A stretch of 26,877 nucleotides of DNA from a virus (lineage: Duplodnaviria; Heunggongvirae; Uroviricota; Caudoviricetes): the IMG/VR virus record IMGVR_UViG_2718218104_000011, one strand, 5' to 3'. A program made the position numbers. Each line of letters begins with the position of its first letter. Position 1 is the stretch's first letter. Positions 18,001-21,000 of the stretch are shown piece after piece.

Positions 18001-21000
18001 CTTTGTCGTAATCGAGATTAAAGAACCAGCCACCGCCATTAAGCAGCCAGTGATTGACGTTTCCACGCTCTGATAAGCCATCAATCATCATTTGCTCATG
18101 GTTTCCACGTACAGCTCTGAACCAGGGGAATGTGATTAATTCCAGGCATTCTACGTTCTCTGTACCGCGATCAACCAAATCGCCCACCGAGATAAGCAGG
18201 TCTTTTTTGGTGTCGAATCCTATCGTCTCCAGTTTTTTCATCAGGTTCGTGTAGCATCCGTGCAGATCGCCAACTACCCAAATATTTCGGTATTTGCTGC
18301 CATCAATTCTTTCGTAGATATTCATGCAACCTCACTTCTGCTGTTTCGCAGTTTTTTAAGTTTCTGTTGATACTCCGCCTTGATGGCCCTGCACTCTTCG
18401 ACAGTCCAGCGATAGCGGTTATGGTTTGATTCGATTTCCTCTACTGCTTCCTGCCCGATGCGGCTAATCAGTTCGACGCGATACGGAACGAGATTTCCGC
18501 TTTTGTGCTGGTTGCACACCACGCATTGCTTGTGAATATTGCGTTCATCAAATCGGAGTTGAGGTGCCGCAGCAGTTGTCCGGTAATGTCCGGCATCCCA
18601 CTGAGCAGACGTGAGCGTTCCGCACGAGATACATGGTAAGTCGCGGTCTCTTTCTCTGATGAAGGCGTGTACGGCTTGTTGGGCTTGTTTAATCCAGTAA
18701 CTGCGGGGCTTTAAGGCGAGTTTTTGAATCTTAAGTTTATCTTTCTGTTTCTGCTCCTCTCGTCGTCGTTTCTTCTCTGCTGCCTTTTCTGCCTTTTCCG
18801 CTTTTTCGCGTTCTTTGCTTCGTCGTTCGAGTGCTATCTTGGTTCCACACTCTGGAGAGCACCACCACTGATTAGCGAATGCAGGGTGAAACCATTCCCG
18901 ACATTCATCGTTTTTACATCGTCTTCGCGCTGGTTTAGCCATCATCTTTTTCCTCGTGCATCGAGCTATTCGAATCGCTCATCAGCTCTGCGCAGCAGTG
19001 CTCACACACGTGAACTTCCAGCACATGCAGCTTCTGACCGCAGTTAGCGCACGTTAAAGCCCGCTCGACGCTTTCTTGTTCGTAACTTCGATTTTGGTCA
19101 ATCACCTTGTTTTCCTCGCACAATGTCTTAGCCACCGGATATCCCACAGGTGAGCCGTGTAGTTGAAGGTTTTTACGTCAGATTCTTTTGGGATTGGCTT
19201 GCGTTTATTTCTGGAGCGTTTCGTTGGAAGGTATTTGCAGTTTTCGCAGATGATGTCGGTGAAACTTCGTCGCTGTCGTCTCATGCCGCCCTGTCTCCCC
19301 ATCGCGCTTTCATGCCAGCGATGCGCAGTTCATCGCATTGTTGATCGTCGCCAACCAGTACGGCCTTAATCCGTGGACGAAAGAAATTTACGCCTTCCCT
19401 GATAAGCAGAACGGCATCGTTCCGGTGGTGGGCGTTGATGGCTGGTCCCGCATCATCAATGAAAACCAGCAGTTTGATGGCATGGACTTTGAGCAGGACA
19501 ATGAATCCTGTACATGCCGGATTTACCGCAAGGACCGTAATCATCCGATCTGCGTTACCGAATGGATGGATGAATGCCGCCGCGAACCATTCAAAACCCG
19601 CGAAGGCAGAGAAATCACGGGGCCGTGGCAGTCGCATCCCAAACGGATGTTACGGCATAAAGCTATGATTCAGTGTGCCCGTCTGGCCTTCGGATTTGCT
19701 GGTATCTATGACAAGGATGAAGCCGAGCGCATTGTCGAAAATACTGCATACACTGCAGAACGCCAGCCGGAACGCGACATCACTCCGGTTAACGATGAAA
19801 CCATGCAGGAGATTAACACTCTGCTAATCGCCCTGGATAAAACATGGGATGACGACTTATTGCCGCTCTGTTCCCAGATATTTCGCCGCGACATTCGCGC
19901 ATCGTCAGAACTGACACAGGCCGAAGCAGTGAAAGCTCTTGGATTCCTGAAACAGAAAGCCACTGAGCAGAAGGTGGCAGCATGACACCGGACATTATCC
20001 TGCAGCGTACCGGGATCGACGTGAGAGCTGTCGAACAGGGGGATGATGCATGGCACAAATTACGGCTCGGCGTCATCACCGCTTCAGAAGTTCACAACGT
20101 GATAGCAAAGCCCCGCTCAGGAAAGAAGTGGCCTGACATGAAAATGTCCTACTTCCACACCCTGAACCGCCCCGGGTTTCCTGGAGAGTGTTTTATCTGT
20201 GAACTCAGGCTGCCAGATCATCGTTTCCGATGGAAGCATAATAAGCTTTTTCTGCTTCTGCCGGAGGAGTATGGCCCAGCCTTCCCAGCAATCGTCGATT
20301 GTTATACCAGTCCACCCACGTTAGTGTGGCCAGTTCCACTTCTGCACGGTTTTTCCAGCTCTTACGGTGTATTACCTCCGCTTTGTAAAGACCATTGATG
20401 CTCTCAGCCATCGCGTTGTCATACGAGTCGCCTGTACTCCCTGTTGATGCCAGTAATCCGGCTTCTTTTAGTCGCTCCGTATAGGCCAGTGACACATACT
20501 GAGAGCCTTTATCGCTGTGATGGATGGTGCCAGACGGACGACGGGCCCACAACGCCTGCTCCAGCGCATCCAGCACGAATGTCGTTTCCATAGACGATGA
20601 GACCCGCCACCCCACGATGTATCCGGCAAACACATCAATGATAAACGCCACATAGACGAAGCCCTGCCATGTGCTGACGTAAGTAAAATCAGCCACCCAC
20701 AGCTGGTCAGGTCGTTCTGCCACGAACTGACGGTTTACGCGGTCGCCTGCGGCAACGGCTTTCCGGCTGATGGTCGTACGGACCTTTTTACCCCGGAGAA
20801 CACCGGCAAGTCCCATAACCGCCATGAGACGTGCCACTGTACATCTGGCCACCCTGATTCCTTCCCGTAACAACTGACGCCAGACTTTACGCACACCGTA
20901 CACCTGATGATTTTCATCGTATACGCGCTGTATCTCTCTCTTCAGCCAGTCGTCGTGCTGCGCACGGGCACTGCGTTTATCCGGATGATGTCGCTGTTGC

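Follow-up and report, generated by a model that had tools for sequence, protein, structure and literature searches.

The ninE–bet junction of prophage Sp3/CP-933K in Escherichia coli O157:H7: probable scar of one 7.43-kb early-region deletion

We find that a lambda-like prophage of Escherichia coli O157:H7 carries a base-exact fusion between the 3′ end of ninB and the interior of bet, and that this junction is almost certainly the scar of one simple internal deletion of ~7.43 kb in prophage Sp3/CP-933K, which happened once, on the branch to typical O157:H7. The junction lies in what we call the window, the whole 26,877-nt stretch of DNA that we analysed (IMG/VR record IMGVR_UViG_2718218104_000011). 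The early-region deletion of Sp3/CP-933K is itself already known: the defect has been published, and the truncated bet gene is routinely annotated. Our analysis fixes the breakpoints to the base and the size at 7.43 kb, shows that the joint lacks microhomology, and places the event after the split of the 493/89, LSU61, and O55:H7 lineages; in the searchable papers, we did not find the event timed relative to that split.

Identity of the element and position of the junction

By alignment, we assign the window to prophage Sp3 of strain Sakai (CP-933K in EDL933), a lambda-like prophage of E. coli O157:H7 adjoining ybhC. Window positions 13290–20164 match Sakai at 100% identity and positions 21471–26650 at 99.92% identity (BLAST), with Sp3 occupying positions 891124–929709 of the Sakai genome (NC_002695.2). 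A 44-mer spanning the junction (window 19290–19333) falls within the Sakai feature annotated as “prophage Sp3, lambda-like phage”, and the same annotation gives bet as pseudogene ECs_0810. The element occupies the lambda attachment site, with ybhC on one side and ybhB/bio on the other: the right end of the window runs from int into ybhC, and in TR01 the effector genes are followed by ybhB and bioA. In EDL933, ybhC is Z0943, and Z0955 and Z0984 are listed as CP-933K proteins. The cargo is also that of Sp3: the TR01 element carries lpxR, nleB2, nleC, nleH1-1, and nleD; the window aligns to the TR01 stretch with nleB2, nleC, and nleH1-1; and the annotation of strain 4276, which is almost identical to the window, names lpxR, nleB2, nleC, and nleH1-1. 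The remaining effector gene, nleD, lies just beyond the left end of the window.

The open reading frames around the junction are those of a lambda-type ninI-type phosphatase, ninG, ninF, and ninE on the minus strand, and of bet and exo on the plus strand. Given the lambda gene order, this adjacency of ninE (minus) and bet (plus) is the layout expected if everything between the two genes had been removed. The features of the region, by window position, are:

15325–16014, minus strand: Q antiterminator gene (from annotation)
16489–17448, plus strand: lpxR cargo gene (from annotation; ylcG also lies in the 15325–17448 block)
17660–18325, minus strand: gene for the ninI-type Ser/Thr phosphatase, part of the retained nin region
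18322–18942, minus strand: ninG/rap, part of the retained nin region
18935–19105, minus strand: ninF, part of the retained nin region
19102–19284, minus strand: ninE, intact, 60 codons (NinE WP_001254218.1, the same protein in the undeleted orthologues)
19281–19311, minus strand: ninB remnant, the last 31 nt of the gene (from identity to ninB 3′ ends)
19311/19312, no strand: deletion junction, TTTC/ATGCC, blunt, with 0 nt of microhomology and 0 inserted bases
19312–19985, plus strand: bet pseudogene, nt 113–786 (2 nt of codon 38 plus codons 39–261)
19982–21975, plus strand: exo, split by IS629/IS1203 (1,310-bp copy at ~20163–21472, with a 3-bp CCC target duplication)
24193–24411, plus strand: xis
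24389–25459, plus strand: int, 356 aa, intact
25594–26877: ybhC, chromosomal gene to the right of the prophage end, at the lambda attachment site

We place the switch in homology exactly at 19311/19312. In BLAST alignments to six references (lambda, phage 2B8, and the prophages of RM12761, CB9615, LSU61, and 493/89), and in a separate alignment with 2B8 and lambda, the bet arm always opens at window position 19312. This base is nt 113 of bet and the middle base of codon 38, and A39, at 19314, is the first complete codon. On the other side, the nin arm stops at 19311 in each reference in which ninB abuts ninE. Beyond these points the parental sequences part company in every reference: the ninB-side parent runs on as CATTCG, and GG(C/T)G stands before the breakpoint in the bet-side parent. 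When we searched with a 120-nt query centered on the junction, other E. coli genomes matched either positions 1–60 (NinE/NinB) or positions 61–120 (bet), and only 296 genomes matched across the joint. The choice of reference matters for the left arm: lambda has ninD upstream of ninE, and its homology accordingly ends at 19277, so that the correct references are phages and prophages with ninB abutting ninE. The prophage of O145:H28 strain RM12761, with a dam methylase gene between ninB and ninE, is likewise unsuitable for the left breakpoint, but is a good reference for the bet arm (99.77% identity).

The sequence immediately left of the joint is the end of ninB. Read on the minus strand, positions 19281–19311 comprise 1 nt of a Trp codon followed by KARWGDRAA and a stop, and this stop overlaps the ninE start by 4 nt, as ATGA. 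The remnant is 100% identical to the ninB 3′ end of 2B8, CB9615, LSU61, and 493/89, and 93.5% identical to that of lambda ninB.

An initial sequence-only reading of this DNA had proposed a single IS-free deletion that fused the region upstream of ninE to bet at about codon 39. The BLAST alignments and the split 120-nt query bear this out, with the fusion falling at codon 38/39. Two details of that reading need adjustment: its start of bet homology at 19314 holds for the first complete codon, A39, but DNA homology begins two bases earlier, at 19312; and its “upstream-of-ninE sequence” is correctly located but not anonymous, since the 27 nt plus the ATGA overlap make up the last 31 nt of ninB.

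The lost segment in undeleted orthologues

Three undeleted orthologous prophages occupy the same ybhC site, in O55:H7 strain CB9615, atypical O157:H7 strain LSU61, and sorbitol-fermenting O157 strain 493/89. Their flanks are 97.9–99.9% identical to the window, they share its Int, Xis, Exo, NinE, phosphatase, and Q protein accessions, and, as it does, all three have lpxR as cargo (for LSU61 and 493/89, the LpxR protein is identical). Unlike the window, they keep the early region, and bet is full-length in LSU61 and 493/89 but frameshifted in CB9615. The segment missing from the window measures 7,432 bp against CB9615, 7,430 bp against LSU61, and 7,432 bp against 493/89. It comprises bet nt 1–112, gam, kil, cIII, a DUF2528 (ea10-like) gene, ral, N, a hicA/DUF1902 (hicAB-like) pair, cI, cro, cII, O, P, ren, and ninB nt 1–410. 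In the CB9615 segment, Pfam searches identify N_peptide, HTH_3 plus Peptidase_S24 (cI), HTH_3 (cro), Phage_rep_O, and Phage_lambda_P. The genes ninC and ninD are absent from the undeleted orthologues, where ninB directly abuts ninE. The extent first given for the loss, gam to ninD, is therefore correct on the gam side, where bet nt 1–112 went as well, and incorrect for ninD: the left break lies within ninB, at nt 410/411, in an ancestor that had neither ninC nor ninD.

A free lambda-like phage, 2B8 (NC_049952.1), provides a further comparison. Its int/att module is 99.3% identical to the window over positions 21471–25550, and it has the same ninB–ninE–ninF–ninG arrangement (98.0% identity). 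It differs in its immunity region, which has an NYN-domain gene and a different cI, and in its cargo. With 2B8 as an intact proxy, the deleted stretch is 7,242 bp long.

The undeleted relatives show some features of their own. In the CB9615 prophage, the HicA toxin gene and its DUF1902 (HicB-like) partner lie between N and cI (locus L008, 28465–29057); as this pair is inside the lost block, typical O157:H7 has lost a prophage-borne toxin–antitoxin module as well. Sister prophages at ybhC also decay independently. The RM12761 prophage has an IS3-family element in O (locus L006, 7389–8703) and a frameshifted gam, and the CB9615 prophage combines its frameshifted bet (locus L008, 24951–25737) with an internal stop in the prohead protease/capsid gene.

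We asked whether the missing genes might instead have been moved, either by an inversion or because the region is a recombinant between two lambdoid prophages. Lambdoid prophages of O157 do recombine often, and the identity of the bet arm ranges from 97.7% to 99.8% among the references. Against this, one and the same undeleted prophage, integrated at this attachment site in the nearest outgroups, matches both arms collinearly and in the same relative orientation (99.6–99.9% identity for CB9615 and LSU61), and homologous exchange would not set ninB nt 411 against bet nt 113 without shared sequence. We searched the window and the complete Sp3 of TR01 with the lost block as it occurs in lambda and in 2B8 (blastn and tblastx) and recovered only the 31-nt ninB tail, and the rest of the prophage holds only tail genes and effector genes in the TR01 annotation. 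A relocation of the early genes by inversion, the finding that would have overturned the first reading, was thus sought in both sequences and not found, and we consider either form of this alternative very improbable. The first claim that N, cI, cro, O, and P are missing stands as made: all five are present in the orthologues at the same site and absent from both the window and full-length Sp3. Overall, collinear flanks in the same relative orientation as in the undeleted relatives, with no early genes elsewhere on the element, are what a simple internal deletion leaves, and no observation speaks against the deletion as such.

Distribution, timing, and origin of the joint

The junction 44-mer occurs once each in 295 of 5,426 complete E. 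coli genomes, always at 99% identity or better, including Sakai and two EDL933 assemblies. In a sample of 60 of these 295 genomes, each one that names a serotype is O157. With a longer query of 801 bp over the joint, 296 complete E. coli genomes give full-length matches; among the matches listed, identity is 100% and every name bearing a serotype reads O157. Conversely, only 17 genomes contain a full-length immunity region of the undeleted type, O55:H7 strains, LSU61, and 493/89 among them. The distribution of the 44-mer, together with the undeleted outgroups, points to one ancestral event on the branch to typical O157:H7 followed by clonal inheritance, with placement on the O157 tree based on three outgroup genomes and the 60 genomes sampled from the 295. 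This agrees with the description of Sp3 as one of the “fixed” prophages conserved across O157 strains (Shaaban, 2016; PMC5359411).

The same distribution bears on whether the joint could be an error of assembly or scaffolding. Prophage-rich O157 genomes misassemble easily at repeats, although nothing specific points to such an error here; the same junction recurs in 295 finished genomes that many laboratories produced on a range of sequencing platforms, and the sequence is unique and contiguous for 853 bp to the right of the junction and 10.6 kb to its left. We regard an artefact as scarcely credible.

The joint itself is blunt. With CB9615, LSU61, 493/89, 2B8, or lambda as parents, 0 nt are shared between the two breakpoints, and the alignment to lambda and related prophages that the first reading had called for thus gives a breakpoint of 19311/19312 without microhomology. 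The longest word common to both breakpoints within 60 nt is a 7-mer that is out of register, and a repeat search around the junction returned short chance matches only. The joint is consequently not that of a deletion between short direct repeats or microhomologies, for which at least 1 nt would be shared. Nor does an IS end abut it, as in an IS-mediated adjacent deletion: the nearest IS629/IS1203 copy starts at ~20163, ~850 bp away and within exo. A blunt joint of this kind points to homology-independent illegitimate recombination. By itself, though, a joint with zero microhomology is uninformative about mechanism, and a multi-step history would leave an identical sequence.

We propose that illegitimate recombination, independent of homology, fused the two break points, one at bet nt 112/113 and the other at ninB nt 410/411. 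One step would have taken pL and pR with their operators, N, cI, cro, cII, cIII, kil, gam, and ral, and in the same step the hicAB-like pair, O with ori, P, ren, and most of ninB would have gone. The event would postdate the split of the sorbitol-fermenting O157:NM (493/89) and LSU61 lineages, with vertical inheritance since. Candidates for the joining enzymology are topoisomerase- or gyrase-type illegitimate recombination, or end joining after a double-strand break.

An IS-assisted origin would differ from this proposal in its first step: an IS629/IS3-family copy would have entered the early region and then left by IEE-dependent imprecise excision together with flanking DNA, leaving an IS-free joint. 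O157:H7 has many IS629 copies; IS activity is high within this prophage, the window alone having three identical IS629/IS1203 copies, one of them bordering a 15.6-kb deletion of head and tail genes; and the IS3-family element in gene O of the O145:H28 prophage lies inside the segment lost here. IEE-dependent excision is reported to generate adjacent deletions of a few nt to >40 kb (PMC9943667, citing Kusumoto 2011). However, no IS sequence or remnant, terminal inverted repeat, target duplication, or filler DNA is present at 19311/19312, the segment is free of IS elements in all three undeleted orthologues, and the proposed IEE mechanism (PMC9943667) rejoins ends via microhomology, of which there is none here. 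The hypothesis also leaves no testable sequence trace. We judge this route unlikely. Its broader form, in which the junction is an IEE/IS629 excision footprint that domesticated the prophage on the typical O157:H7 branch, locking in the effectors and lpxR while removing the toxic kil and gam, appears quite unlikely; if true, the 44-mer would be a clean lineage marker that separates typical O157:H7 from sorbitol-fermenting O157:NM, LSU61, and O55:H7.

Consequences for the prophage and later damage

What remains of bet still matches Pfam RecT (PF03837) over profile positions 19–195 of 198, but the start codon, N-terminal codons 1–37, and the first base of codon 38 are gone, and the remnant does not qualify as a functional Bet/RecT. 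Its first in-frame start candidate is a TTG at 19338. In the almost identical O157:H7 strain 4276, PGAP annotates a truncated bet pseudogene at the equivalent of 19314–19985, labeled “incomplete, missing N-terminus”. As read from its sequence, the bet pseudogene retains neither a start codon nor a promoter.

The ninE and bet′ blocks now lie 27 bp apart in divergent orientation. With the repressor and both early promoters lost, the nin–Q–late block and the bet–exo–xis–int block would be left as two divergent, promoterless units. A consensus scan for a new promoter at the joint found no promoter-like site nearby, and terminator-like hits in the scanned region numbered 5, against 2.0 ± 1.6 in shuffled sequences. 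Given the loss of pR and the negative consensus scan, the nin–Q block would be silent, and genes downstream in the Q, ylcG, and lpxR region would be deprived of pR-derived transcription. The lpxR product Z0955 has been detected in the O157:H7 proteome, indicating that this cargo gene is still expressed.

The fusion also creates a 118-codon open reading frame at 19281–19637 on the minus strand, which lies antisense to bet, terminates within the ninB tail, and shares sequence with the start of ninE; on this strand, an in-frame ATG at the joint comes from CAT at 19311–19313. Nothing supports this frame as a gene, and it probably arose by chance when the two ends were fused.

Published work on Sp3 reports that CI, Cro, O, and P are missing, that the Exo/Bet/Gam system is disrupted, and that the prophage does not circularise, replicate, or become packaged (Asadulghani et al, 2009; PMC2669165). 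The expectation from sequence that the prophage can have no immunity or replication functions from this locus agrees with those data. By our reading, the element would be locked in the chromosome as a fixed carrier of lpxR, nleB2, nleC, nleH1-1, and nleD, and losing kil and gam while keeping the effectors may have brought a selective benefit.

Other lambdoid elements have been cut down in comparable ways. Laboratory deletions of lambda (such as nin5 and the b deletions) and the K-12 cryptic prophages DLP12, Rac, and Qin are also internal deletions, with early or nin blocks gone, that leave a defective, non-inducible element like Sp3. The nin5 deletion removes only ninB–ninI and leaves immunity and replication intact, whereas Sp3 has been stripped of its immunity and replication core and retains the nin region from ninE on.

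Compared with Sakai Sp3, the window has additional, later damage: an IS in exo, which is intact in Sakai and TR01, a loss of ~15.6 kb, and a third IS by nleB2. The three IS629/IS1203 (IS3-family) copies are 1,310 bp long and 100% identical, at ~4013–5322, 7407–8716, and 20163–21472. The first lies between nleB2 and a tail-fibre gene, with a TCC target duplication, and is absent from strain 4276. The second, with no target duplication, replaces ~15.6 kb of TR01, a stretch that takes in most of the portal gene, continues through J, and stops 8 nt into lom; this joint resembles those left when an IS deletes adjacent DNA, here head and tail genes. The 15.6-kb joint and the exo::IS joint are common to the same eight complete O157:H7 genomes (4276, 9234, 2159, 2149, 1130, Gim1-1, NE92, and NCCP 13918). 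The int gene is intact in the window, in TR01, and in the outgroups but a pseudogene in Sakai, with one gap in the window–Sakai alignment of the int arm. Thus, in contrast to the early-region deletion, the int defect described for Sp3 is a strain-specific feature.

The Q region has a further peculiarity. The lpxR gene lies on the opposite strand between a 72-nt antiterminator-gene remnant (17592–17663) and the functional Q gene (15325–16014), a layout suggestive of an earlier replacement or insertion there. The undeleted O55:H7 orthologue has this layout too.

The junction is a possible diagnostic marker for typical O157:H7, with no new biology implied. The deletion explains at the sequence level why Sp3/CP-933K is a fixed, non-inducible prophage: in one event, it lost the repressor, both early promoters, N, and the O/P/ori module, and kept its integrase, late genes, and virulence-related cargo.
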